From: a virus
Length of the DNA stretch: 64,000 nt
Direction: 5' to 3' (one strand)
IMG/VR virus record: IMGVR_UViG_3300026484_000436
Location: 32,001-96,000 of that record
A program made the translations under genes and the position numbers. Numbering within the stretch: the stretch's first letter is position 1; every line of letters begins with the position of its first letter. Below, in pieces: positions 1-50,909 of this stretch. Under the pieces are notes generated by a model. The model did no database searches, had not been told where the DNA came from, and saw nothing but the letters and a program-made list of their open reading frames with translations.

Positions 1-435
1 AACTACTTTTATGGATTCCAAATCTCCTTCAATTGAATTTATCTTTTTTTCAACTTTATTTCTAAAATCGTCCATTTTTTGATAAAGATTCGTTATCCTA
101 TCATCAATTTTTTTGAGTTTTTTTTCGTAACTATCAAATTCATTTTTGAATTTGTCTTCCTGTATATCCTCAATTTTATCTTTAAGTTTTTTTTCATTCA
201 AGACGAATTTTTTTCTTAACTCATATCTTTCTTTATATTTATTTAAAGTGTCCTTGAGATTTCTATAATTTTCATTTAATTTTTTTATTCTTTCAATAAA
301 ATTTAATTGTAAATTTATTAAAGGAATATCTAATTTTTCATTGAGTGTTTTAAATTCATTTGAATAAAAAACAAGGTCTTGAATGTCTTTTTTATGGACA
401 TCTAAACAGGTATTAAAGGTATCAACTCTAACCAT
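1..435 (-). CDS. Partial coiled-coil protein running off the window edge (MVRVDTFNTCLDVHKK...), probably virion/fibre-associated
   Basis: ATG at 435 just after the stop of 439..864; frame stays open to base 1 by manual translation; K/E/L-rich heptads. Confidence 0.6.
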   Translation of the reverse strand, partial: MVRVDTFNTCLDVHKKDIQDLVFYSNEFKTLNEKLDIPLINLQLNFIERIKKLNENYRNLKDTLNKYKERYELRKKFVLNEKKLKDKIEDIQEDKFKNEFDSYEKKLKKIDDRITNLYQKMDDFRNKVEKKINSIEGDLESIKVV

Positions 436-438
436 TTT

Positions 439-864
439 TTACCCCTTAAATTTTGGTAACAACTCAATAAATTCTTTAACATTATCTTGGGGTTCTATAC
501 TTTTTATGATTTCTTCATAAGTTTCATAAACATTATCCACCCATTTAGAAAGTGCTTTTGCTTCTTTTTGGTATATTTTAACATTTTTACAATATAATAA
601 ATCTGCCAAATCGTCATAATCAAAGTAATTTAACACTTCTTTTATGTAATTAGACACTATTTTTGAAAATTTTCGTTTTAAAATTTCAACTTCTTCAATT
701 TCATTTTGTTTTTGGAGTTCTTCATCTAAAACTAATTTTCCATCTTTTACTTTATAATTATACCATTTTTCAGGTAAAAGGTCAACCTCAATAAAAGGTT
801 TTTTGAATAATTTTTTTTCACTTTTACTAATTATATTTCCGTTTTCATCATAATAAATTATCAT
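439..864 (-). CDS. Tail fibre assembly/chaperone-like protein
   Basis: YYDENG N-terminus and YDDLADL...EAKALSKW...LLPKF C-terminus typical of small proteins next to fibre genes. Confidence 0.55.
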   Translation of the reverse strand: MIIYYDENGNIISKSEKKLFKKPFIEVDLLPEKWYNYKVKDGKLVLDEELQKQNEIEEVEILKRKFSKIVSNYIKEVLNYFDYDDLADLLYCKNVKIYQKEAKALSKWVDNVYETYEEIIKSIEPQDNVKEFIELLPKFKG

Positions 865-2036
865 ACTATTCCTTCAATTTTCCAACCAACTATTTTTATG
901 TCAATACTTCTAACCTGAGAAATACTTCTCGAAATTCCATCATTCAATCCAGCAATATAACCATCTTTATCGTTATTTTTTTGATAAGTTTCTACATATA
1001 TTTTATCATCTGTAAAACTTAAAAACATACCTGAATTATTATCTCTATTATCATCGTCAGAATAACTTGAAAATACACCAAATTGCATAATTTCACCTGA
1101 ACTCCATCTCATATATCCAATAAAAAGTGCATTTCTACCTAATGGGTTATTTATTGAATAACCATTATTATCTATTGAATGCCATCCACTATCAAAAACA
1201 GGTTTTCCAATACCACCTGCCATTTCTTTAAGGGATTTTTGATTTCCATCATTGTGAAATATCAACTCAGGAGCATCTATTATAACTGCTGCTTTTGATT
1301 TTAAAACAGTAACATCCGAATCTCGTGATTGTGCATCATTTTCCACACCTAATATAAGTGCTGAATTTTCGTCGCTGCCATCTCCCCAATAAGCATAAGT
1401 ATTATCATCGGAAACATATTTTAGATATCCATAATCAGAACCTTCATTTGTATCTGAATCAAATTTTAAAATAGTTTCCCCATCTTTATTTTTAAAAGTC
1501 AATCCACCTGTTTCAATTTTTTTAGATTTGTCTAAATAAGGTTCTATATCATCTTTTATAGTATCTATATCGTCTTTATTGCTTTTTATATCATCTGAAT
1601 TAGAACTCACCTCATCTTTTAAATCTTTAATAGTTTCATCATAATTATCTTTAAAAGTTTTAAAATCACTTTTATTAAATTTATCTTCATCAAGTTTTTG
1701 TAATTTATCACTTAAATCTTTTAGTTTGTCATTTATCGAATTATTATCGCTTGTCGTTGAATTTATATCGTCTTGTATTTCATTTATTAAATCACGAATT
1801 TTATTTAATTCTGTTTCCACTTCTTTAAAATACTCTTCATCTGTTTTTGTTTTTATGAATGTTTCTAATTCATCTATTTTTGATTCAATATCCGTTAAAG
1901 AATAAGAAACATTAAAAACCTCATCGCCATTCACTTGATATATTTTTTTAGATTCCCCATCATAATATAACATTGACTTTAATTCTACTTTGTGAAGACT
2001 ATCACAAGTTTCTAATTCGCAAGTTTTGATAGACAT
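861..2036 (-). CDS. Tail fibre / receptor-binding protein (coiled-coil shaft, beta-rich tip)
   Basis: Coiled coil followed by a G/D/W-rich domain with FDSGW motif; adjacent to the chaperone-like gene. Confidence 0.55.
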   Translation of the reverse strand: MSIKTCELETCDSLHKVELKSMLYYDGESKKIYQVNGDEVFNVSYSLTDIESKIDELETFIKTKTDEEYFKEVETELNKIRDLINEIQDDINSTTSDNNSINDKLKDLSDKLQKLDEDKFNKSDFKTFKDNYDETIKDLKDEVSSNSDDIKSNKDDIDTIKDDIEPYLDKSKKIETGGLTFKNKDGETILKFDSDTNEGSDYGYLKYVSDDNTYAYWGDGSDENSALILGVENDAQSRDSDVTVLKSKAAVIIDAPELIFHNDGNQKSLKEMAGGIGKPVFDSGWHSIDNNGYSINNPLGRNALFIGYMRWSSGEIMQFGVFSSYSDDDNRDNNSGMFLSFTDDKIYVETYQKNNDKDGYIAGLNDGISRSISQVRSIDIKIVGWKIEGIV

Positions 2037-2308
2037 TATAATCCTTTAATTTTTTCATAATAACTACTCAGTTTATTTTGAATGTAATTATTACCTTTTT
2101 TATATTTAGATAAATCTGACAGCAATTCATTTTTTTCTTTAAAAGATTTAATTTTTTTCAAATCCTGAAATAATTTATCATAATCCAATTTTAGGTCCAT
2201 GTGTAATAATTTTGTCATAAAAGTCTCAAAATTATTTTTTTCTTTGGTATCTTCAATCTCATTTATTTTATTTTGTAATTCTAAAAAACCTTCATATATC
2301 GTTTTCAT
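2036..2308 (-). CDS. Hypothetical protein
   Basis: ORF translationally coupled to the next gene. Confidence 0.5.
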   Translation of the reverse strand: MKTIYEGFLELQNKINEIEDTKEKNNFETFMTKLLHMDLKLDYDKLFQDLKKIKSFKEKNELLSDLSKYKKGNNYIQNKLSSYYEKIKGL

Positions 2309-2747: not shown

Positions 2748-5700
2748 CTCGCCCAATTGGTGTGTTTTGTCTATTTGAACTAAATGATTCATCTTGTGTT
2801 ATAAAAGTATTTACTATTCCAACATTCGCAACTTCAAAACCATCTTCATATAAAGGCGAATTTAATTTAGTTGAATGAACTCCACTTGCTTCTTCATTGT
2901 CGAAGTTTCCATTCCCTACAACCATTGGGATATAACCATCTTTTACTTCTTCTTCGAAATAAATTCTGTATTTACCAACTGAAATTCTTTTGACACCTTT
3001 AATCCCATAACCTTTTATGATAGAACACCACCCGTCTTCATCATAATTCGTTCCATCAAAAACAACAGCAATTTTATTGAATCTTAGATCTGTTTTTTCT
3101 ACTTTAACATTATCCAATCTTTTTTCTTCGGCAGTTGCTCTTGAAATTTCATTATCAAGTTTCGCATCAATTTCGTTTTCTCTTTGAGTTGCTCTATTGA
3201 TTTCATCTGATAAATCTTCGTTGATTTGATTTTCAACTCTTTGTGCTCTATCTGATTCTTCTTCAAGTGAAACTCTCAATTTGTTTTCTTCGTCAATTGC
3301 TCTACTTCTTTCAACTGATATTTCATTTGACAACTCATTTTCTCTTTGAGTTGCTCTTGAAGTTTCATTTGAAATTTCATCTTCTAATTCGTCTTCTTTT
3401 GAAGTCGCTCTATTTATTTCATCGTCAAGTCTTTTATCAAGTACATTAACCTCATTAACAATTTCTGTTTCTTTTGTAGTCGCTCTATTAACTTCATTGT
3501 TTATCTGAATTTGTAAATCTTCATCTTTTGTTTTTGCTCTATTTATTTCATCATAAAGATTTGATTTGATATTTTCTTCTTCGGCAGTCGCTCTATTAAC
3601 TTCGTCATCTACTTTCTTTTCAATTAAATCTTCTTTCGAAGTTGCTCTATTAACTTCGTCTTCAATTTTTGAATTTAATTCATCATCTTTTGAAATACTT
3701 CTATTGATTTCATTTGAAATTTTATCTTCTAAGTCATTTTCTTTTGAAACTGCTCTATTAACTTCGTCTTCAATTTTTGAATTTAATCTTATATCTTCAT
3801 CGATTGCTCTACTAACTTCATTTGAAATTTTATCTTCTAGGTCATTTTCTTTTGAAACTGCTCTATTTGATTCATCATCGATTTTTGAATTCAATTCATC
3901 ATCTTTTGAAATACTTCTATTGATTTCATTTGAAATTTTATCTTCTAAATCGTTTTCTTTTGAAACTGCTCTATTTGATTCATCATCGATTTTTGAATTC
4001 AATTCATCATCTTTTGAAATACTTCTATTTATTTCATTTGAAATTTTATCTTCTAAGTCATTTTCTTTTGAAACTGCTCTATTAACTTCGTCTTCAATTT
4101 TTGAATTCAATTCATCATCTTTTGAAAAACTTCTATTGATTTCATTTGAAATTTTATCTTCTAAATCATTTTCTTTTGTAACTGCTCTATTGATTTCATC
4201 ATCGATTTTTGAATTTAATTCATCATCTTTTGAAATACTTCTATTGATTTCATTTGAAATTTTATCTTCTAAATCGTTTTCTTTTGAAGTTGCTCTATTT
4301 GTTTCATCATCAATTTTTGAATTTAATCTTGTATCTTCATCAACTGCTCTATTTACTTCATTTGAAATTTTATCTTCTAAATCGTTTTCTTTTGAAGTTG
4401 CTCTATTTGTTTCATCATCGATTTTTGAATTTAATCTTGTATCTTCATCAACTGCTCTATTGATTTCATTTGAAATTTTATCTTCTAAATCGTTTTCTTT
4501 CGAAGTTGCTCTATTTGTTTCATCATCGATTTTTGAATTTAATCTCGTATCTTCATCAACTGCTCTATTGATTTCATTTGAAATTTTATCTTCTAAATCA
4601 TTTTCTTTTGAAACTGCTCTATTAATTTCATCATTTATAGAAGTTTCAAGTTTATTATCTATATCCGTTGCCCTTATAATTTCATTTGATAATTTTTCAT
4701 CAATGTTATCTTCTTTTGAAACTGCTCTATTAACTTCGTCTTCAATTTTTGAATTTAATTCATCATCTTTTGAAATACTTCTATTTATTTCATTTGAAAT
4801 TTTATCTTCTAAGTCATTTTCTTTTGAAACTGCTCTATTGATTTCATCATTTATAGAAGTTTCAAGTTTATTATCAATTTCAATTGCTCTATTAACTTCA
4901 TCATCTACTTTCTTTTCAATTAAATCTTCTTTCGAAGTTGCTCTATTAACTTCGTCTTCAATTTTTGAATTCAATTCATCATCTTTTGAAATACTTCTAT
5001 TTATTTCATTGTCAAGTTTTTCGCTAATACTTCTTTCTGTAGAAATTGCTCTATTTTTTTCATCTTCGATATTTGATTTTAACGAAGTATCAGTTGATAT
5101 TGCTCTATTTTTTTCGTTTTTTAAATCTTCGGATAAAGTTTCCATTTTTGAATTTAATCTTGTATCTTCATCAACTGCTCTACTAATTTCATTTGAAATT
5201 TTATCTTCTAAATCATTTTCTTTTGTAACTGCTCTATTGATTTCATCATTTATAGAAGTTTCAAGTTTATTATCAACATCTATTGCTCTATTAACTTCGT
5301 CATCTACTTTCTTTTCAATTAAATCTTCTTTTGAAACTGCTCTATTAACTTCGTCTTCAATTTTTGAATTTAATTCATCATCTTTTGAAATACTTCTATT
5401 AACTTCGTCATCTACTTTCTTTTCAATTAAATCTTCTTTCGAAGTTGCTCTATTGATTTCATCTGAAATTTTGTTTTCAAGTTTAGTATCAATTTCAATT
5501 GCTCTATTAACTTCGTCATCTACTTTCTTTTCAATTAAATCTTCTTTTGAAACTGCTCTATTAACTTCATCTTCAATTTTTGAATTTAATTCGTCATCTT
5601 TTGAAATACTTCTACTAACTTCATTTGAAATTTTATCTTCTAAATCATTTTCTTTCGAAGTTGCTCTATTTATTTCATTTGAAATTTTTGAATTTAATTC

Positions 5701-19677: not shown

Positions 19678-21342
19678 TTACTCCACAAAATTGACATCAA
19701 TACCATAAAATACTAAATACTCATATTTCTCAGAGTTTATGATATCTTCATTTGCTATATTTTTAATATATTGAACTGGATAAACTTCAACTCCATTATC
19801 CACGCTTTTATATTTTGTAACCTCAGAAATTATTTTATTTACTTCCAAAGAACTATTCATTTTATATTCATACTTTTTAATTACTTTTTTGATATAGTTA
19901 TAAACTTCATCTTGAAACTTATTATTAACTAATTTAACCTCAAAACTTAATCCTGTTATTTTCGGTATTCCTGGAATATACACTATATTTATGCCTACAA
20001 TAGAAACTCTTTTCATAAAATTATCCAAATAAAGCAACTCAGAAGTCGTTAAGTTTTTTCTAATAGGTTCATCCCCTTTTTTAACATAATAAACATTTAA
20101 GATGCAACTTTGACTCTTCATAAAATCATTTAATTTTATAATTTCTATATTCTCACCTGATACTGAAATTTCCCTTTCAAGAAATTTTTGTTCTATATAT
20201 AATTCCACCTCATTTTCAGGGTTCGTTACCATCCTTGGGGTAACTATTAAATTCATTTTTAATAAGTCGTAAAATCTTTTTATAAAGTCGTTCATAGATT
20301 CATAACTATACTTTGATAATTTTATTACGGAACCCTCTATTAAAAGTTTATATTCTTTTTCGCCATCAAAATCATCCATTTCTTTAAATTTCAATTGCCA
20401 CCCTGCTGGTATATTTTGCTCGGGTTCTAAATAAACATCATCAAAGATATTTGAATTTAAAATATGATAATAATAGTCTTCTTTTGTTACTGCTCTTCCG
20501 TTGGTTGTTTTTAAAAAGGGTGCCATAATTTTTATTTTATCAAGTGTATCTTCATCTAATCCATAAAAATAAATATCTTTAAATTCAAAATTAAAATTCA
20601 TTTTAATTTTAAAATCATTAGATTTTAATTTACCATCTGTTTCCATATAAATAAATTTAACTTTTTTTAAGTTTGTTCCAAAATTATTTTCTAAGTCATT
20701 TATATAAATAAATGCCTCTTTATTTGTTTTAGACCAATTTACGATTTTGTTATTTAGTATATAATCTTCAAACATAGTAGATAATCCAACGATTTCAAGG
20801 TCATCAATTATTGCTAACATATTATCATTATCTACACTTCTTAAAAATTCAGATTTTAGTAATAAGTTGTTTTTCTTATTAAAAAAAGTTTCGATTTCTA
20901 CTTCTTGTTTAATTCCTATTTTTAAATTTACAAAATCATTATATTTTATTTTTTTAGGTTTATCCAAATACACTATATCATAATTTTTTTTATCTATCGT
21001 AACTTTTCCTAAAACTTGCCCTAATTCTAAAATTATATCTTCATTACCTAAATAAACAAATGAAAATTCGGGTGCCTTTGCTCTTTGAAATCTATATCCT
21101 AATGGATAAGCGCTTTCAAAAACCGATGTTTCAAGTTTCGCTTTTTGTAAATATGTTTCTTCTCGGTACATTTTATTTTTGAATAAAGTCATAGAAGTAT
21201 AACCTGCTAAAAGCGAAGCAATTAAATCAGTCGTAGAATTATCCATTTTCGCTTGGATTTCCTTAAAATTATCAAGTGATTTAATATATTTTAAAAAATT
21301 TTCTTTTATTTCGTTAAAATCGACTTTTTGAATATCTAACAT
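19678..21342 (-). CDS. Baseplate wedge subunit, T4 gp6-like
   Basis: DFNEIKEN, ETYL..AKLETSV...A..LGY, AP....GRAVTKEDY motifs. Confidence 0.85.
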   Translation of the reverse strand: MLDIQKVDFNEIKENFLKYIKSLDNFKEIQAKMDNSTTDLIASLLAGYTSMTLFKNKMYREETYLQKAKLETSVFESAYPLGYRFQRAKAPEFSFVYLGNEDIILELGQVLGKVTIDKKNYDIVYLDKPKKIKYNDFVNLKIGIKQEVEIETFFNKKNNLLLKSEFLRSVDNDNMLAIIDDLEIVGLSTMFEDYILNNKIVNWSKTNKEAFIYINDLENNFGTNLKKVKFIYMETDGKLKSNDFKIKMNFNFEFKDIYFYGLDEDTLDKIKIMAPFLKTTNGRAVTKEDYYYHILNSNIFDDVYLEPEQNIPAGWQLKFKEMDDFDGEKEYKLLIEGSVIKLSKYSYESMNDFIKRFYDLLKMNLIVTPRMVTNPENEVELYIEQKFLEREISVSGENIEIIKLNDFMKSQSCILNVYYVKKGDEPIRKNLTTSELLYLDNFMKRVSIVGINIVYIPGIPKITGLSFEVKLVNNKFQDEVYNYIKKVIKKYEYKMNSSLEVNKIISEVTKYKSVDNGVEVYPVQYIKNIANEDIINSEKYEYLVFYGIDVNFVE

Positions 21343-21345
21343 TTT

Positions 21346-21705
21346 TTACCTTTGTATTATAGTAAATGATTCACTTAAACTATAAACCCCATCCAATCCA
21401 TTTATTTTAAATACCAATTTTAAAATATATAATCTTGAAGTAGAGTCTATTGATATATCAGTTTCATCCAAAAGAGTAATCTCAGGGACAAATTTTAAAA
21501 GGCAATTTTTTAGTTTTAATTTAATTGCCGTTAAATGCCAAACTTCAAGAGTCCCAAAAAGATATTCTCTTAAATCACAATCAAAATCTCTACAAAAAAA
21601 CCAATCACCTTGTATTGATTGTAGTAATAATTTGATTTTTTGAGTTATAGCATCGACATCATTAACAAATAAATTGTCTGAAATTGATAAATCCGTATAA
21701 ACCAT
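21346..21705 (-). CDS. Baseplate wedge subunit, T4 gp25-like
   Basis: DVDAITQKIKLLL...GDWFF...F.CDL..YLF...P.I motif. Confidence 0.85.
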   Translation of the reverse strand: MVYTDLSISDNLFVNDVDAITQKIKLLLQSIQGDWFFCRDFDCDLREYLFGTLEVWHLTAIKLKLKNCLLKFVPEITLLDETDISIDSTSRLYILKLVFKINGLDGVYSLSESFTIIQR

Positions 21706-21724
21706 TTTTTCCCTTTTGATGTAT

Positions 21725-22567
21725 TTAATTCAAGTTTATTGTGGCACCTTTTATATTAACATTGGCACCGGCAGTTAAATTTATGTTACCCGCCACTTTT
21801 ATGTTTAAATCCCCATTGACTTCTAGAGTATCATTTAAACCTATTTTTGTACTTCTATTACCCTTTATATCAACATTCATATTTTTTAAAACTTGTAAAA
21901 TAAAATCATCATTATATTCTTTTTTAACTAATTTATCCACAACCTCTAACAATTCTTCAAGAATATGATTATATTTATTTTTCAAAAATATATTATCGCT
22001 ATTCCCCGAAACCATAAAATTTCTATCTTGCATAACATAATAAATTTCCGTTCCTGGTACTTTATATTCACTATTCCCTTTTCCATCCACTTTTTGATAA
22101 TAACCAGTATGATGAACTCTCCACCATTCGCCTGTGGTAAAATTAAATTTTTCAAAATCATTTTGTTTATTTATTGTCATCTTAGTATTAGGGTAATCTT
22201 GTTCTGAAGAATAATTTATATCGGACATATCTGTTATATTTGTGTATTTTACTTCGACTTGTTTAACTGTCGTATGTTTGATGTCTTTTTCAGCATCTTG
22301 CTGTTCGTGATTATCAGAAACAGCAGAATCAGTTTCTTGGGCAGAATGATTTGCCTCATCTTTTGCCTTAGTTTTTAATTTATTTTCTTCACTTTTTTGC
22401 TTTAACGAAAGCATTTTTTTCGCATTATTTGTCAATTTCTTTGATTGCTCGTGTAAAGGTTTTGATATAGATTTTAATTTATCCCTAACTTCGTTTTCAA
22501 GTGGATGACCCTTTAAGTTATTTTGCCACTCATCTAATTTTTTATTTACATCACAGAACAAACCCAT
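21725..22567 (-). CDS. Baseplate central spike, gp5 C-terminal beta-helix part
   Basis: YPN, HHTG, VxG repeats, ends GATINLN. Confidence 0.75.
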   Translation of the reverse strand: MGLFCDVNKKLDEWQNNLKGHPLENEVRDKLKSISKPLHEQSKKLTNNAKKMLSLKQKSEENKLKTKAKDEANHSAQETDSAVSDNHEQQDAEKDIKHTTVKQVEVKYTNITDMSDINYSSEQDYPNTKMTINKQNDFEKFNFTTGEWWRVHHTGYYQKVDGKGNSEYKVPGTEIYYVMQDRNFMVSGNSDNIFLKNKYNHILEELLEVVDKLVKKEYNDDFILQVLKNMNVDIKGNRSTKIGLNDTLEVNGDLNIKVAGNINLTAGANVNIKGATINLN

Positions 22568-22579
22568 TTATTCTCCCTT

Positions 22580-25060
22580 TTAACAACTTGGCATATTAAG
22601 TTTAAACTTTGGAAACGATAATGAAAAGTTAAATTTTAATCCATCAAAATGAAATTTTGGTGCTGCTATTTTACAATTCAAACCATCTTCAAGCATTTTT
22701 TCAAACATATCTTCATATATTTTTTCCTGTTCTTCTGCCCATTTTTTAACCCCATCTTTCATAGAGTCCATAAATGATTTTCCATCATTATTACATAAAT
22801 CGTTTGGACTCAACCCAAACATACCTAATGCTCCTGATATTGAATTTTTGATTGCTCCTATCATATCTGCACCAAATTGGTCTATACTTCCCACGAAATC
22901 TGCAATAGCATTACCTAGATTATCAATCGTATCTCCGATTGTATCTAATAAATTCAATAACATTCCTAAAAGGCATAAAAGTGCCTTTAATAAACATAAT
23001 AAAGCACTAATCATATCAAATAATGCCTGTATAGGTCCTAATATAGAATTTACAATGTCAGCAAATTTATTGATGTATTTTTGTAAAAAGTCTTGTGCTC
23101 TTTTTAAATTATCATCTAACCACCCTTGAACTCTTGCTATACCTTTATTGACCCATTCTGATAATTTATTGGCATATTCTTGTAATTTATTTTGAAATTT
23201 TTGAGCATACCCCATCAATTTTTCTGAAAATTGATTAATCTTTGAAGACCATTGTAAAAATTTATTTCTTAAATCTTCAAGGAATGTAGTTTTTTCTTTT
23301 TTAAGTTTTTTTGGTTTATCATCTGGTAATTTTTTATTACTTTTTGAATTACCACATTTTTGTTCTTCAGGAAAATTATCCACATCCGGCAAATCGTGTA
23401 TATTCTCGTCCATAATCAATGCTATTTCATTAAAATTATTTAATGTAATTTCTCCAAAGGCAGTAACTATTTCCTCAAGATGATTATACTCTATTTCTTT
23501 TTCTACTTGTTTAAATTTATCAAATGTTACTTTTTCAATGTCTAAGACTTTTGATAAATCAGTTGTTTTTTTCTTAGGAATGTTATCATTGAAATCTGCT
23601 GGAAACCTTAAATTATTGAGATTATTTTTTGAAATAACATCAATGGGTTTTTTAACTTCTATGCCAGGTAAAGTTGAAATTAACTTATCTATTCCCTTTG
23701 TCATTTTCGAAGATTGTAATTCTTCTTTAATTTTTTTTGATAATAATTCAATTTCTTTATCAATTTTTATTAAATTATTGTTACTTTTAAAAACAAACTC
23801 TGTGGCATTCATTGTAAAATTATTCTTTTTTAACAACTCGTTTATTTCTTCAATGGATTCAAAAAACCCTGTTCCTAAAATTTCTTCAAGTGTCATTTTT
23901 TTAGACATATTTAAAAGACTATAAAATTTAAAATTATCCTGTAATTCAATCGATGCTTCTTCACTTTTTTCATCAATGGTATTTATAATTGTATGAATAC
24001 TACTAAAATCAAGAACATCTAAAAATAAACGAATATAAGCATAAATTGATTTTTCAAAATAAACGATAGAACCGAATTTATCAAATACTTCTTTTTTCAA
24101 AAGAGGTTTAACATACTTGAAAGATTGATAACCACTTAAAAATATCTTAAAAATAGTTTCATATAATTTTCTTTCGATTTCATAATTTTTAAGAATGTAA
24201 ATTATAGGCAATAAATATAAAAAATCTCCTTGAAAACTTTTATCTTTTAATAATTTTTCTACAATAAATACCTTTTTAACACCAATATCTATGAAATCTT
24301 CAATTAAATTGTATTTTAATTTTTTTGGTATAAAACTATAAATTAAGTCAATATATTTATTTTTACTAACAAAATAATTGGGTAATAACTCTTGTGAAAA
24401 ATTTAAAAATTCCCCATAACCATTTAAAATCTCATCAAGTTGCGAAGTCAAACCATAAAAGTAAGTATTTTCAAAAGGAAAGACATTTGATAACTTCATC
24501 TCTTTTTCTAAATATGGTAAAATTTCTTCATTTTTTTCACTCATTTCTTTTATAATTTTGTCTTTTTGTTTATCATTTATAGGTTGGTGTTTCACAAAGG
24601 TTGAAACTTCAATAGGTTCATCCATATTAAACAAATCATCTGTTTGATTTCTTTCAAGTAATGATATTAAAAACCCATTTTTTTTATTTAGATTGTACTC
24701 TTCTATAAAATAAAGAGTCATCATTTTAGCAATGTGTAAAAAATTAACATATTTGGCAAATTCAAGTGTTAAATCTTTTGGCATAAGATAATCATTTTTT
24801 AGTTGAAACATCAACTGATAACCATTTTCAATTTCCCCAAGAATTGCCATTTTTTGTTCTTCAGGTAAATTTTTAAAATGGTATCCTTTAATCATTTTAC
24901 TAATGAATTCAGTATTTTTTTGAAAATTATAAAGATTTGTGATTTTTCTTTCTTCAAAAAGTGTTATAACACCATTCATAAAAATTATATATTCATATAT
25001 ATTATTATATTTTTCAAAATGATAAGTATTGCTACCATATTTCTCATAAATTTTTTCCAA
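22580..25060 (-). CDS. Large hypothetical protein with an amphipathic/hydrophobic C-terminal helix
   Basis: 826 aa lying between the two gp5-like genes. Confidence 0.5.
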   Translation of the reverse strand: MEKIYEKYGSNTYHFEKYNNIYEYIIFMNGVITLFEERKITNLYNFQKNTEFISKMIKGYHFKNLPEEQKMAILGEIENGYQLMFQLKNDYLMPKDLTLEFAKYVNFLHIAKMMTLYFIEEYNLNKKNGFLISLLERNQTDDLFNMDEPIEVSTFVKHQPINDKQKDKIIKEMSEKNEEILPYLEKEMKLSNVFPFENTYFYGLTSQLDEILNGYGEFLNFSQELLPNYFVSKNKYIDLIYSFIPKKLKYNLIEDFIDIGVKKVFIVEKLLKDKSFQGDFLYLLPIIYILKNYEIERKLYETIFKIFLSGYQSFKYVKPLLKKEVFDKFGSIVYFEKSIYAYIRLFLDVLDFSSIHTIINTIDEKSEEASIELQDNFKFYSLLNMSKKMTLEEILGTGFFESIEEINELLKKNNFTMNATEFVFKSNNNLIKIDKEIELLSKKIKEELQSSKMTKGIDKLISTLPGIEVKKPIDVISKNNLNNLRFPADFNDNIPKKKTTDLSKVLDIEKVTFDKFKQVEKEIEYNHLEEIVTAFGEITLNNFNEIALIMDENIHDLPDVDNFPEEQKCGNSKSNKKLPDDKPKKLKKEKTTFLEDLRNKFLQWSSKINQFSEKLMGYAQKFQNKLQEYANKLSEWVNKGIARVQGWLDDNLKRAQDFLQKYINKFADIVNSILGPIQALFDMISALLCLLKALLCLLGMLLNLLDTIGDTIDNLGNAIADFVGSIDQFGADMIGAIKNSISGALGMFGLSPNDLCNNDGKSFMDSMKDGVKKWAEEQEKIYEDMFEKMLEDGLNCKIAAPKFHFDGLKFNFSLSFPKFKLNMPSC

Positions 25061-25071
25061 TTTTCAATCCT

Positions 25072-25386
25072 TTAAGTCATCGCAGGTGGTATTGAAGAAA
25101 TTGATTCAACTATAATTCCATTCATAATATCTTCTTCTGGGAAATATACAATTACTCTAGAGTCTATATTAGGTGTATCATTTTTGGCATTTGCCCCACT
25201 TTTGGGTGCCATTTTAATATAATACCAAGGTAAATCTTCTTTATCAATTTCATCTGTAACCCCATCGATTTGAACTTTTAATCTATTTGCTTTCAGTGGG
25301 TCAGCATCATCTACAACAGTTGATTGAAAAAAATTACCTTTTAAAAAATTTTCAATTAATAATTCTCTTTTATCTGTTAAAATCAT
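25072..25386 (-). CDS. gp5 N-terminal OB-fold domain as a stand-alone protein
   Basis: VVDDADPLKANRLKVQI.G...LPW...P..DSRVIVYF motif. Confidence 0.8.
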   Translation of the reverse strand: MILTDKRELLIENFLKGNFFQSTVVDDADPLKANRLKVQIDGVTDEIDKEDLPWYYIKMAPKSGANAKNDTPNIDSRVIVYFPEEDIMNGIIVESISSIPPAMT

Positions 25387-25403
25387 TTCTTCCCTTTATA
25401 TTT

Positions 25404-26522
25404 TTATTTAATATAAAAATCGCGAGAACAACTTATTACAAATTTTTCAAAACCCTTATTTGAAATACTCATCTCTATACCTGTTATTATATAATTGCCT
25501 TCGATGGCAAGCGAATGCTCTAATGATTTTTTAGTTATATCCTCAAATTCAATCAATTTTAATAATTCAATTTTTGTAAAATCACTAAGATTGTCAAGTG
25601 TTATTTCTAAATCAAATGTCTCTAATTTGTTCCTTAAACTTATATTAAATCTTCTTGAATAGTTATATTTCTCGTGTGTATTCATATTGTCATTTAACAC
25701 TTTATATGGATAATAAGGTACTTTATCATAAGGTTCCCCTGTAAAAAGTGAATTCGTAGGGATATCTTCTGCTATTATTTGGTGGGTTGGTATTTGAAAA
25801 TTTTGTGCCTTTCTTTCTGGACTTAATTTATAACTATAAATATCAAAATTTCCTGAAAAAATAAAGTTAGTGAATTGAATTTCATCACTTTTTTTGCTTT
25901 TCATATTTGTAATTTTTAAAGGTTTTTGTTTAAGAATGTTTGAAAAGGTATTTATCTTAAATTTCTTTTCAGGTGAAATAAATCCTAAAGATAAATCATT
26001 ATCAAAATATATATAGTCATATAAATACTCTAAAAATTTTTTTTCTGTTATATTGTATCTTAACCAGGTTTGCATATCATCACTCGCCCCTTTCGTTGTC
26101 AAATCGACAAATTCAATATTCTTCAATTCAGACATAACTTCAAGAGCACTTTTTTCTTTGAATGCTTCTTGTTTAAAATCATTTTGAAAAAAATCTGTTA
26201 AATCTACTAAGCAATTCAATGTAACATTAAACATTCCAACTTCGTTTTTTGTGAAAATAAAACTCGAAATTTGAAAAAACATTTTTTTGATATACCTATC
26301 ATTAGCAGCAATATCAACCTCAACAGGGGCACCTTGAAACATTATCTTAGACAATCTATCATAAGTTAGAGTCAAGTGTATTGAAGCATAAGGTAAATTT
26401 TCTGGGTGTAACTTATAACTTATTCCAATTGACTTAAATTCGATTTTTTCTATTTTTAAATTATTTATTGTAATCTTATTTTGAAAATTTTCATCATTTG
26501 ATAAAACATAATTTTTACCCAT
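25404..26522 (-). CDS. Baseplate hub protein, gp27/gpD-like
   Basis: Position before the gp5 OB gene; GNYIITGI...SRD C-terminus. Confidence 0.6.
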   Translation of the reverse strand: MGKNYVLSNDENFQNKITINNLKIEKIEFKSIGISYKLHPENLPYASIHLTLTYDRLSKIMFQGAPVEVDIAANDRYIKKMFFQISSFIFTKNEVGMFNVTLNCLVDLTDFFQNDFKQEAFKEKSALEVMSELKNIEFVDLTTKGASDDMQTWLRYNITEKKFLEYLYDYIYFDNDLSLGFISPEKKFKINTFSNILKQKPLKITNMKSKKSDEIQFTNFIFSGNFDIYSYKLSPERKAQNFQIPTHQIIAEDIPTNSLFTGEPYDKVPYYPYKVLNDNMNTHEKYNYSRRFNISLRNKLETFDLEITLDNLSDFTKIELLKLIEFEDITKKSLEHSLAIEGNYIITGIEMSISNKGFEKFVISCSRDFYIK

Positions 26523-31059: not shown

Positions 31060-32190
31060 TCATAGTCTGGGATATACCTTTAAATCGACTATATCTATAT
31101 CAATGACATATTCTTTTTTACAATTTGGGCAAGTTAAAATTATGTTTTCTAAATCTATATCAAATCTAACAATCTGCTCATCTAATTTTAACACTTCTGA
31201 AGGCATTGAGTATTTTATAACATCAATCTTTTGCTGTAAAATCATATCCTCATTTTTTATATATAATGCTTTTACAATCGTTTCGTCAGAAGTATTTAAT
31301 TCATCTTGCAATCTTTCAAGATTTTTTTCGAGAAAAATATAATCACGAATTGTAAGTGGTGCTAATTCTAATTCAACACCTTCAAGATTGAAATAAATAG
31401 GCACTTCGACATTTGAATCCTCAACCCTAAATGCCAAATCTGCAAGTGTTATTTTTGAATTTATAACTGTATTACATTTAACCCTTAAATTGTCTGGATT
31501 GCTTTTAAGTTTATCTATTTCCTTTTGAAGTTCCCCAATTTCTTTAACTAATTTTTCAATATCACTTTCTGCCTTTTTCAAATTTTCGTCTTTGAAATTA
31601 GGTAAAGTCATATTTATATTCTCTAAAATAATTTGTTTGTTTTTTATCATTTTTTCGTTTTTTGTAATTTTTGGGTTGTCAATTATATTATCACATCTAA
31701 AATTCGGACTCCAAGAATGTTCTGGGTTTGTATAAAGATTTGAAATTGTAGTTGCTAAAACAAAATCTGAAATTTCCATATCTTCGATAGTCATATTTGG
31801 GTCTTCAAATTTTATGGCATTTCTAAAAACCTTTACACCTTCAGCAATTGAATAATCATTATTGAACTTTGATAATTCTCTAACCTCATCAAAAAACAAT
31901 CCTCTAACATAAAATGCTTTATTTGACCCATAACTTCTAAACATTGAAGGGGTTTCTTCAACTTTTTGATATTCTATTTCTTTTTCGATTGTCCCCAATT
32001 TTACTTTTTGTTTTTCACTCGTAATTTTTGGGAATTTAATATCTACTTCTTCTTTTGCTACTTCGTATTCATATTGTTTTTCTTTCATAGTTTTTGAAGA
32101 TCCAATATCTACTTCATATTGTTCTTCCTTCGTAGTTTTTGGGATTTTAATATCTTCTTCTATTATTTCATATTCATTTTGTTTTTCCAC
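31060..32190 (-). CDS. Baseplate hub assembly / tail chaperone, gp26-like
   Basis: C-terminal TCPNCK motif, PLTIRDY; lies upstream of the tape measure. Confidence 0.65.
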   Translation of the reverse strand: MEKQNEYEIIEEDIKIPKTTKEEQYEVDIGSSKTMKEKQYEYEVAKEEVDIKFPKITSEKQKVKLGTIEKEIEYQKVEETPSMFRSYGSNKAFYVRGLFFDEVRELSKFNNDYSIAEGVKVFRNAIKFEDPNMTIEDMEISDFVLATTISNLYTNPEHSWSPNFRCDNIIDNPKITKNEKMIKNKQIILENINMTLPNFKDENLKKAESDIEKLVKEIGELQKEIDKLKSNPDNLRVKCNTVINSKITLADLAFRVEDSNVEVPIYFNLEGVELELAPLTIRDYIFLEKNLERLQDELNTSDETIVKALYIKNEDMILQQKIDVIKYSMPSEVLKLDEQIVRFDIDLENIILTCPNCKKEYVIDIDIVDLKVYPRL

Positions 32191-48850: not shown

Positions 48851-49963
48851 TTAAGAAATATAAGCAGAAGTTAATCTTTTAATTTCTTCGATTCCACCAT
48901 CAACGACACCTGATGAAGCAATACCACAAGCAGCAACAATACTTCTCATAGTTAATTTTCCTTCACCTTCTTTCATCGCTTCAAGTAATTCTTCTTTATC
49001 TTCTAGTTCCATTTCAGGTACGATAAATTGTAATAATGATTTAATTCTTTCTACAACATCTTCTCTTCTTAAGAAAACATCCATAAAAACACTTCTTGAT
49101 TTAATTGCTGCTAAATCAGGGTCTTTAAGAAATTTATCACCTGGTAAATTCGAAACGAAAATTATTTGACTATCAAATTCAAATGATGAAGGTAGTCTAT
49201 ATTTTTTACTTCCAATTAAACCGATTTTATCAGGGTCCTGAAATGCTAAATCTAAATTTGCCAAATATTCTTTTGCCTTTTCAGGCTCTAACCCATCCAC
49301 ATTTAAAGTCGCATTTGAAAACCAACTGATTTCTCTCATTGTATCTGTATCCATTGCAGATTTAAGCATATTTATACAATCTCTATCGTTTAAGAATCCA
49401 TCTGAATCATCGAAAACAATCGTCATATTTTTTCTGTATTGGTATAAAATTCTATATAATCCTAATGCTGTTCCTTTAAGTCCTTTAAAATGTTTCCATT
49501 TCGCATCAGGTCCTTTTGGATCTCCATACATTTCTTTAAGTGCCTTAGACACATGGAATGTGTTATGATGAACGAATCCATAAGCATCACTATAAAGGTG
49601 ATTATCAGTGTTAATAGCAATATCATATACAACTTGTTTAGGTAATTCTTCAATTTCAACGATTTTTTCGTTTCCATTTCTATTAACTAATACATCCTCT
49701 ACTTTTATTTCACTTGTATCTGTCATTCCTCTTTCAGTTAAAATTCCGTGTGCTTTAGCAACTTCAACCACTTTTCCTGTTTCAGTAGTGATTTTTAAAA
49801 CTTCATATTCTTTAATAATCATTCCTGAAATTTCCTGAAATTCTCCATTTTCATCTTTTATTTTGAATTTTGTTTTAGGTGAATACATTTCATCAACTTT
49901 GAAAATATGCCCTTCTTTTTCAGAAATAGTATCAAAAATTTCTTTAAAATTCATTTGTCTCAT
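48851..49963 (-). CDS. Split-intein C-fragment (aa 1-134) fused to the C-terminal part of an AAA+ ATPase
   Basis: Block B-like VAKAH, block F VYDIAI...HLY, block G HHN followed by T; then Walker B IVFDDSD. Confidence 0.9.
   Translation of the reverse strand: MRQMNFKEIFDTISEKEGHIFKVDEMYSPKTKFKIKDENGEFQEISGMIIKEYEVLKITTETGKVVEVAKAHGILTERGMTDTSEIKVEDVLVNRNGNEKIVEIEELPKQVVYDIAINTDNHLYSDAYGFVHHNTFHVSKALKEMYGDPKGPDAKWKHFKGLKGTALGLYRILYQYRKNMTIVFDDSDGFLNDRDCINMLKSAMDTDTMREISWFSNATLNVDGLEPEKAKEYLANLDLAFQDPDKIGLIGSKKYRLPSSFEFDSQIIFVSNLPGDKFLKDPDLAAIKSRSVFMDVFLRREDVVERIKSLLQFIVPEMELEDKEELLEAMKEGEGKLTMRSIVAACGIASSGVVDGGIEEIKRLTSAYIS
49562..49963 (-). mobile_element. IntC fragment of an atypically split intein (134 aa)
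   Basis: HINT motifs ending in His-Asn with +1 Thr. Confidence 0.88.
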
Positions 49964-50004
49964 TTATAATTCCTTTGTTTATTTTTTACTTTTATGCCAA
50001 AAAC

Positions 50005-50073
50005 CTACCAAAAAATTGGACAGGTTTCCAATTTACCATTTTTTAAATTTGTTATCTTGTAGATAAAACCCAA
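50005..50073 (-). pseudogene. Remnant of a GIY-YIG homing endonuclease gene
   Basis: TTG-started mini-ORF MGFIYKITNLKNGK... with AAGGA RBS, truncated after 22 aa. Confidence 0.75.
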
Positions 50074-50075
50074 AA

Positions 50076-50909
50076 TTATAATCCTTCAACCTCAAGAACC
50101 ATATTTTCAGATCCACATTTTCCCACACCTGCCATTCCTGCTACTATCAGACCTTTTTGTGCTCCTGTCGCAACAACTTTTACAAGAATTTCAATATCTT
50201 TAAAAATAAGTTCAGGGTCTGCATATTTTCTTTCTGCTAATTTTTTCTCAGCAGTTTTCATTTGTTCTGTAATTGAATTATCTTCAGCAGAACCTTTTGT
50301 GATTTTGAATGATTTATATTCATCGTCGTCCCAAACACCTTCATCTTTCATAATTTTTTTAAGTTTTTGAGCAGAACTTCCACCTTGCATTGGGTCAATA
50401 CCTTTTGCTATCGCATAAGCATTTATTTTTTTGTTTAATTTAGGATTAAACTCTTCATTTACACTTTCTCCAATCGAAGCAGAATTATTTTCAAGTGCAT
50501 CTTTAATTACACCAACCACTTCCACGATATTTAACCAATCAGGAATATAAATTGTTTGTGAGGGTTGTCCGAATGATGAACTTCCATCAGGTCTCCAAAA
50601 ATCGACTCTATTTACACTAAATTTATTTTTTAAACCTTTCGCTTTTGTTTTTCTATTAACAAATCCAAATCTAATCATATATCCATTTTTTGAAAGATAT
50701 TGAAAACCTACACCTTTTTCTCCATCGCTACTTGTAAAATCATTTTTGAAAAACGAATCTGTCATTTTTTTAAATTTACCAAATTTACTTTTTGAAAATA
50801 AACTTGCTAAAAGTTCTGAAACTTTTAATAGATTTTTTTCACTGAACGCTTCGTTTAAATACCCTTTCGAACTTAAACCTTTTGCTTCTAAAATAACATC
50901 TTTAAGCAT
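50076..50909 (-). CDS. N-terminal part of an AAA+ ATPase ending in a half Walker A plus IntN
   Basis: GLIVAGMAGVGK/C; MLKDVILE leader; TTAAATA at 50941-50947. Confidence 0.88.
   Translation of the reverse strand: MLKDVILEAKGLSSKGYLNEAFSEKNLLKVSELLASLFSKSKFGKFKKMTDSFFKNDFTSSDGEKGVGFQYLSKNGYMIRFGFVNRKTKAKGLKNKFSVNRVDFWRPDGSSSFGQPSQTIYIPDWLNIVEVVGVIKDALENNSASIGESVNEEFNPKLNKKINAYAIAKGIDPMQGGSSAQKLKKIMKDEGVWDDDEYKSFKITKGSAEDNSITEQMKTAEKKLAERKYADPELIFKDIEILVKVVATGAQKGLIVAGMAGVGKCGSENMVLEVEGL
50079..50117 (-). mobile_element. IntN fragment of the split intein (13 aa, CGSENMVLEVEGL)
   Basis: Cys immediately after GMAGVGK; stop 13 codons later. Confidence 0.85.

Follow-up and report, generated by a model that had tools for sequence, protein, structure and literature searches.

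The atypically split inteins, in which a short N-terminal intein fragment (IntN) is encoded apart from a long C-terminal fragment (IntC), provide the natural standard of comparison for the element analysed here, which lies in a 64,000-nucleotide stretch of viral DNA (positions 32,001 to 96,000 of IMG/VR record IMGVR_UViG_3300026484_000436; this whole stretch is called the window). In the window, the Walker A motif of an ATPase is interrupted by an intein whose first 13 residues end one open reading frame (ORF A) and whose remaining 134 residues begin the next (ORF B). The most similar described system is VidaL (PDB entries 6vgv and 6vgw; Burton et al. 2020 and Neugebauer et al. 2017, as cited in PMC13014065), which comes from the phage-type metagenome DNA of a cold lake and which has in common with the window intein a natural split at the position termed S1, a Cys1 nucleophile, a long IntC containing helix alpha1, a block B without threonine, and insertion in a P-loop. 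The last of these follows from the published VidaL sequence (IntN CLPKEAVVQIRLTKKG, IntC ending ...SHN/SGK, where the slash marks the intein-extein junction; PMC10264447 supplement), since the IntC ends directly before SGK. The VidaL IntN has 16 residues instead of 13 because its beta1-beta2 hairpin is three residues longer. The two inteins also differ in their C-terminal junctions (SHN and Ser+1 in VidaL, HHN and Thr+1 in the window), in their insertion sites (before SGK in VidaL, after GK in the window) and in their host proteins, and their sequence identity is only about 20%.

Other described systems share fewer of these properties. PolB16 OarG (8cpn; PMC10189870) is also a natural atypical S1 split, and a synthetic IntN peptide has been used with it in semisynthesis, but it is cysteine-less (Ser1 and Ser+1), has a 168-residue IntC and a PolB polymerase host, can dispense with the block B histidine, and is a much weaker structural match (TM score about 0.5). 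AceL-TerL, GOS-TerL and the consensus Cat inteins (6dsl; PMC13014065) are natural atypical splits in a phage P-loop ATPase, the terminase, but they are split at S2, after alpha1, and have an IntN of 25-37 residues. The engineered S1 split of Ssp DnaB M86, as summarized in PMC13014065, indicates that an IntN of 11-13 residues at S1 can trans-splice (that of M86 has 11), although M86 is not natural, having been split artificially and improved by directed evolution. In genetic layout the closest precedents are the “fractured genes” of Dassa et al. 2009 (PMC2677866), in which the halves lie in separate genes of phage-type metagenome DNA, terminases are among the hosts, and GIY-YIG and Vsr-like endonucleases are found as inserts. 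The window locus is unlike this layout in that the endonuclease gene between the halves is gone, or is a fossil at most. The gp41-1, NrdJ-1 and IMPDH-1 inteins derived from such loci are reportedly split at the canonical endonuclease-domain position, with an IntN of about 100 residues.

Short IntNs are sought for semisynthesis and live-cell labelling, because they are accessible to chemical synthesis and disturb the target only slightly. The 15-residue IntN of PolB16 OarG was called “the shortest characterized so far” in 2023 (PMC10189870), and a survey of March 2026 (PMC13014065) gives 15-37 residues for natural atypically split IntNs, listing VidaL at 16, AceL-TerL at 25, Cat at 30 and the artificial M86 at 11; no natural IntN shorter than 15 residues was found in the published literature to March 2026. 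These sources agree with the lower limit of roughly 15 residues that was stated in the original prediction for this locus, an annotation made from the letters of the sequence without database searches. We consider it likely, on the sequence and model evidence presented below, that the window carries a naturally split class-1 intein of the VidaL type, with an S1 split, which interrupts the Walker A motif of a NrdC.10-like ATPase in an uncultured T4-like phage.

Host gene and extein continuity

The ATPase is divided between two adjacent minus-strand genes, the first encoding 264 residues of N-extein and the 13-residue IntN and the second encoding the 134-residue IntC and 236 residues of C-extein (Table 1); the original prediction had given these counts, and the coordinates, exactly. 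The predicted spliced product is a protein of 264 + 236 = 500 residues with the P-loop GMAGVGK/T. An intein-free orthologue, for which a search had been proposed, was found in a large protein database: P0002 has 501 residues, its C-extein is 94% identical to that of the window, and its junction reads ...GMAGVGKTFHVSK... without interruption. The pattern G-x-A-G-x-GK-T-[FY]-H is unbroken across the insertion site in P0002, P0005, P0008 and P0020, and the N-extein aligns over its full length with these same four intein-free proteins.

The continuity of the exteins is also seen in a protein family profile. Positions 59-118 of phrog_1250 match ORF A residues 209-265 (E 7e-4), and the profile from position 118 on matches ORF B from residue 135 (E 6.6e-23); since both matches meet at position 118, the exteins abut in the family profile, and the arrangement is not a chance pattern. 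A tblastn search of phage genomes with ORF B gave 606 records, mostly of T4-type phages, in which all matches start at residue 135, several of them being annotated nrdC.10 genes (29-31% identity, E about 1e-8). The nearest Atlas clusters hold viral proteins of about 500-540 residues, with PF00004 in 92-100% of the members; on the intein-free orthologue P0002 the Pfam AAA models stayed below threshold (best AAA_16, E 0.011). The Walker B motif (IVFDD), D185, D188, the sensor-like N272 and R290 are invariant among ORF B homologues, and the retention of Walker B, of a sensor-1-like asparagine and of the arginine indicates that the ATPase gene is not decaying. From these sequence comparisons, the host protein is identified as a T4 NrdC.10-like P-loop (AAA-type) ATPase of the phrog_1250 family, which adds one more P-loop ATPase, interrupted in an essential motif, to the hosts of this mobile element.

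The genomic context is consistent with this assignment. The window is very AT-rich, with a guanine-plus-cytosine (GC) content of 26%, and its other products include a baseplate wedge protein, RNA ligase 1, NrdA, NrdB and ThyX, a gene set that identifies a T4-like myovirus and places the ATPase in a nucleotide-metabolism region; the neighbours of the ATPase gene (nrdA, nrdB, RNA ligase and thyX) match the placement of nrdC.10 in T4-type phages. Nothing in this context bears on packaging, and the suggestion that splicing might act as a post-translational switch for a packaged ATPase was therefore rejected.

Table 1. Coordinates of the split ATPase locus in the window, and of the second fractured gene of the same phage (L146, numbered within that locus); lengths of proteins are in amino acids (aa)
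Feature	Position	Strand	Description
ORF A	50076..50909	minus	277 aa; ends ...LIVAGMAGVGK-CGSENMVLEVEGL-stop
ORF B	48851..49963	minus	370 aa; 134 residues to ...GFVHHN (NHLYSDAYGFVHHN), then TFHVSKALKEM... and IVFDDSD
N-extein of ATPase	50118..50909	minus	264 aa; N-terminal domain, first strand and Walker A to GMAGVGK
Walker A codons in N-extein	50118..50138	minus	
IntN (CGSENMVLEVEGL)	50079..50117	minus	13 aa; block A with Cys1 nucleophile; stop 50076..50078
Spacer between halves	49964..50075	minus	112 bp; no intact gene inside
Ribosome-binding site AAGGA	49971..49975	minus	7 nt upstream of IntC ATG
Possible GIY-YIG remnant	50032..50070	minus	short frame GFIYKITNLKNGK, then broken
IntC	49562..49963	minus	134 aa; predicted alpha-1 helix 6-17, His72, Asp114, His122, His133-Asn134
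C-extein	48854..49561	minus	236 aa; Thr+1 (49559..49561) is the Walker A Thr; stop 48851..48853
Walker B IVFDDSD in C-extein	49400..49420	minus	
Sensor-1-like Asn, SR arginine	C-extein, downstream of Walker B		conserved
L146 N-half	4653..4973	minus	106-aa protein ending ...GATGVGK/C plus 26 residues (27-aa IntN)
L146 homing endonuclease	2957..4579	minus	intact, 540 aa; phrog_3339, E 2.7e-102
L146 ORF	2244..2879	minus	211 aa
L146 C-half	194..2206	minus	140-aa IntC fused to probable large terminase

Two further features of the host gene were seen in its orthologues. The N-terminus MLK(D/E)(V/I)ILE (window 50885-50909) is kept in P0002, P0005, P0008, P0015 and P0019. Two of these, P0015 (334 residues) and P0019 (338 residues), are intein-free at Walker A and end early at one and the same place, with NMLKSAL-KK and NMLKSSI-KI respectively where full-length orthologues read NMLKSAMDT. 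On the sequences, this shared early end suggests a second recurrent interruption of the gene, whether by an intron, an endonuclease insertion or the end of a contig; the locus of the shortened P0019 was searched for and not found.

Intein residues, fold and break position

The residues that carry out splicing in class-1 inteins can be located in both halves. Cys1 is residue 265 of ORF A, directly after GMAGVGK, and a cysteine occupies this position in all 16 distinct IntNs recovered in this work. In an alignment of 41 IntC sequences, K51, H72, D114, H122, L123, Y124, G129, H132, H133 and N134 are invariant or nearly so; among these, the block B histidine (H72) and the block G pair H133 and N134 are invariant, conservation of the block F residues D114 and H122 is 90% or higher, and the residue at +1 is Thr135. 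The motifs VAKAH, VYDIAI, HLY and HHN, by which the HINT domain had originally been recognized, fall on these invariant or near-invariant columns. A threonine at +1 and the lack of the usual block B threonine, both pointed out in the original prediction, were both seen: the threonine half of the TxxH pattern is replaced by alanine here and by alanine, serine or glycine family-wide. Since the threonine is missing throughout the family, and from VidaL and gp41-1 as well, its absence is a trait of the clade and not a defect. Judged from the alignment, then, the full class-1 catalytic set (Cys1, block B His, block F Asp and His, His-Asn and Thr+1) is retained.

Comparison with inteins of solved structure, which had been proposed as a check, gave matches in both profile and fold. 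An IntC profile built from three sequences and run with hmmsearch against the PDB sequences matches inteins only, namely gp41-1 (E 3.4e-8), VidaL 6vgv (E 8.9e-7, over chain residues 18-141 and thus almost the whole length) and CatC (E 1.7e-6). The AlphaFold model of the IntC, computed from the 41-row alignment, has a predicted local distance difference test score (pLDDT) of 96.5 and a predicted TM score (pTM) of 0.85, and includes a helix at residues 6-17. It has 59 PDB matches at E<=0.001, and among the matches listed all are inteins or intein-like (BIL) HINT domains, with a root-mean-square deviation (rmsd) of 1.6 A to both gp41-1 and VidaL. After alpha1, a segment of about 12 residues is present in the window intein that Npu DnaE lacks.

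The position of the break can be determined from a contiguous relative. The IMG/VR locus L114 has an unsplit mini-intein of 147 residues at the GK/T site of the same ATPase, reading ...GMAGIGK/CLGGGTPIKTTLD-KSAHTIQDIFEII...HHN/TFHVEK. BLASTP pairs residue 7 of the window IntC with residue 20 of the L114 intein (36% identity, E 3e-26), and this offset of 13 residues makes IntC residue 1 equivalent to intein residue 14, so that 13 + 134 = 147. In a model of the contiguous form, which superimposes on VidaL over 129 columns with an rmsd of 1.8 A (the structural likeness to VidaL is thus 1.6-1.8 A), helix alpha1 is at residues 19-29, and the break is therefore located after the beta1-beta2 hairpin and before alpha1. 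A break of this kind is the S1 position, which has been assigned to VidaL and PolB16 (PMC13014065). The alignment and the models accordingly point to an atypical, VidaL-like S1 split with a short IntN (13 residues) and a long IntC (134 residues). The central proposal of the original prediction, an atypically split intein in Walker A at GMAGVGK/T whose removal would restore a 500-residue ATPase, is borne out by P0002, by L114, by the fold, by the match to VidaL and by the independent contigs described below.

If the intein is active, the first protein would dock by its terminal 13 residues, the IntN, onto the almost complete HINT domain with which the second begins. Cys1 would form a thioester with Lys-1, which Thr+1 would attack to give a branched oxyester; Asn134 would then cyclize, releasing the intein, and an O-to-N shift would produce the peptide bond GK-T and with it a 500-residue ATPase with an intact P-loop. 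We infer competence for this reaction from the intact catalytic residues, the modelled fold, the continuity of the exteins and the evolutionary maintenance of the arrangement. For a prediction of the docking step, the C-terminal 42 residues of ORF A were folded together with the N-terminal 150 of ORF B. This prediction scored 0.45 where the best control scored 0.02, with an agreement between runs of 52% of contacts or more and a partner pLDDT of 41 or above. Of 80 solved complexes, 58 reached the mark applied in this procedure, as did 2 of 110 mismatched pairs, and scores of 0.60 or less are made up of just 7 of the 80 solved complexes together with both of the passing mismatches. The prediction consequently supports docking only weakly, and, because complexes of split inteins are already in the PDB, it may reflect likeness to them and nothing else.

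Recurrence of the split and competing explanations

The two-gene arrangement is found in many other genomes. Ten C-halves (P0003, P0004, P0006, P0007 and P0009-P0014) share 29-48% identity with ORF B, and the N-half P0021 ends ...GQAGVGK/CVAGNTMVEVQGL-stop, with an IntN of 13 residues. In the same ATPase family, loci L102, L113 and L115 have IntNs of 13, 14 and 12 residues; a 12-residue IntN is found in a ClpX-like protein at L118; L014, L081 and L082 have 13-residue IntNs at an insertion site three residues earlier (GG/TGKT); and the IntNs of L006 and L007 have 13 and 14 residues. The halves are thus separate genes, with their own stop or start and ribosome-binding site, that recur in independent genomes. 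Loci of the same architecture may have a putative endonuclease gene in the gap (L082, L006 and L113) or none (L081).

Searches with the IntC place these loci in a large metagenomic family of inteins that target P-loops, most of whose best-scoring members share the split position of the window. Run against 1.84 billion cluster representatives, the IntC profile has 1345 matches at E<1e-3 and 170 at E<1e-10. About 102 of the top 147 representatives have the IntC domain at the start of an ORF, typically as M-x-x-I-x-I-G-x-L-F...HHN, and lead from there into T, S or rarely C and then into the post-Walker-A sequence of diverse ATPases; in about 28 of the 147 the domain is internal, as in contiguous inteins. 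Judged by eye from their sequence motifs, the hosts appear to include ClpX-, ClpA/B-, clamp-loader-, helicase-, terminase-, ABC- and NrdC.10-like proteins. A degenerate DNA pattern for blocks F and G found 60 IMG/VR loci, the majority of them split at this position, while an IntC profile search of metagenome contigs found two loci, both of the L014 type. The 16 distinct IntNs recovered form two length groups, one of 12-14 residues (eight IntNs, to which P0021 may be added) and one of 26-32 residues (eight IntNs, from L090, L094, L096, L107, L109, L130, L135 and L146), the latter having an additional acidic or aromatic, helix-like tail (for example ...DDMYNFAVKNGLI). The original prediction had placed an IntN of 13 residues among the shortest of its kind; it is indeed below the published natural record of 15 residues, yet it is ordinary within its own subfamily of 12-14 residues, in which L115 and L118 have 12.

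The IntCs that partner the 26-32-residue IntNs were also seen to start with an alpha1-like M-x-x-I-x-I-G-x-L-F segment.

A number of observations weigh against an active intein of the proposed type. The Pfam intein model reaches only E 0.08 on ORF B, and given this weak score the identification is based on profiles and folds; block A of the IntN has Gly at position 2 and, at position 6, Met where most relatives have Thr; the IntN is poorly modelled in the complex prediction, so that support from this source is weak; and threonine at +1 is a weaker nucleophile than cysteine or serine. It is also the case that many natural split inteins splice poorly in tests (PMC11923092). Some of these observations would equally fit an arrangement in which the intein halves associate without splicing and the ATPase functions as a non-covalent complex of two chains that the intein fragments keep in contact. 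PMC3045599 describes an assembly of this kind for a phage ribonucleotide reductase that is fragmented, and both the non-consensus residues 2 and 6 of the IntN and the weak complex prediction would be in keeping with it. However, ATP binding is unlikely for a Walker A motif into which 147 foreign residues are inserted, and the family shows no variation in the catalytic residues of the splicing pathway, all of which the window intein has kept, as one would expect only under selection for splicing; we therefore think such a complex improbable.

A trans-splicing intein also has to be distinguished from the remains of one. If a homing endonuclease had broken the gene in a phage that no longer needs the ATPase, the locus would be a dead, fractured pseudogene, and it may be said for this explanation that a NrdC.10-like gene may be dispensable and that the spacer resembles decayed DNA. 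The coding sequences, on the other hand, do not: ORF A and ORF B are full length and uninterrupted by stops, the C-extein shares 94% identity with that of the intact orthologue P0002 and retains Walker B, the sensor-like asparagine and the arginine, and ORF B retains a good ribosome-binding site. The two-gene form is, moreover, maintained in many diverged phages at 35-58% identity, and decay of the gene is accordingly very improbable. The contig is a metagenome assembly, and the break might for that reason be thought an assembly or sequencing artefact in the gene of a contiguous mini-intein, but there is hardly any likelihood of this. The break is not a single frameshift but a 112-bp insert with stops in all frames, a ribosome-binding site and an ATG are placed exactly at intein residue 14, and the same break point is present in independent assemblies from other samples. 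The occurrence of the same two-gene break in independent contigs makes an artefact very unlikely, as the original prediction had supposed.

Among the readings considered, the naturally split intein is thus retained as the likely one, and its two genes are most likely co-transcribed and separately translated. The ribosome-binding site that had been predicted for ORF B is the AAGGA 7 nt before its ATG. Translational read-through or a frameshift linking ORF A to ORF B was considered and rejected, the spacer having stops in all frames. A terminator parting the two genes was likewise rejected, no terminator-like site having been found in a scan of the 112 bp of the spacer, and so was a structured RNA in the spacer, the fold stability of the spacer RNA being not unusual (z-score -1.56).

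Endonuclease genes and a second fractured gene

The split probably originated when a free-standing homing endonuclease gene entered a contiguous mini-intein, producing a “fractured gene”; in the window this gene would later have decayed to leave the 112-bp spacer. Just past the IntN stop, the spacer has the frame GFIYKITNLKNGK, which runs for 13 residues before it is broken. Its sole Pfam match, SegE_GIY-YIG at profile positions 17-30, has an E-value of 0.065 and is not significant, nor are its tblastn matches (E 0.9-9), some of which are annotated GIY-YIG and intron-associated endonucleases. The endonuclease remnant of the original prediction is thus weakly supported, and a fossil in the spacer is no more than plausible on the sequence. 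Related loci have longer ORFs between their halves: one of 415 residues in L082, absent from its near-twin L081; one of 443 residues in L006, with a weak Vsr/DUF559-type tail; and one of 361 residues in L113. These three loci, and the terminase locus of the phage itself, which is described next, share the layout of Dassa et al., with a gene between the halves that in the terminase locus is clearly a homing endonuclease. Three stages in the history of a “fractured gene” can thus be seen side by side, namely a contiguous mini-intein, halves that flank an endonuclease gene, and halves separated by a scar only.

The phage has a second fractured gene. A search of its 105.6-kilobase record with the IntC alignment gave a second match (E 4.9e-28), located on the minus strand upstream of the window and outside it (L146:194-4973, or G000:C1 about 21193..25972; Table 1). 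The host protein is probably the large terminase, judging from a weak PHROG match (E 5e-4) and from inspection of the sequence by eye, and this TerL-type fractured gene is a further point in common with the TerL and Cat group, whose CatC is matched by the window IntC profile. The two IntCs of the phage are 33% identical, and the maintenance of two related split inteins in one phage raises the question of their cross-reactivity.

A 13-residue IntN (12 in some relatives) that has evolved to act in trans could outperform inteins that were split artificially. It may be, although we advance this as a conjecture that could well fail, that a natural S1-split subfamily with Cys1 and Thr+1 and an IntN of 12-14 residues, as against the 15-37 published, resides in the NrdC.10-type ATPases of uncultured T4-like phages, and that the 13-residue fragment, given efficient splicing in the form of a synthetic peptide, would be the shortest one of natural origin for semisynthesis, with the co-resident 27-residue TerL-type pair as a naturally orthogonal partner.

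Two observations on related loci may be added. Loci L006 (108-1097) and L007 (233-1225) have identical N-exteins and identical IntCs but quite different IntNs (CQIGTTELLGKFE and CLDPNSELAGVFGE), a difference that could be due to gene conversion beside the endonuclease gene or to tolerated variation in the IntN. The phage contig of L118 is GC-rich; in it, a strong hairpin and then a T run come directly after the IntN stop (L118:7572-7620) and an ORF of 160 residues lies between the ClpX-like halves, a sequence arrangement in which the halves may be transcribed separately.

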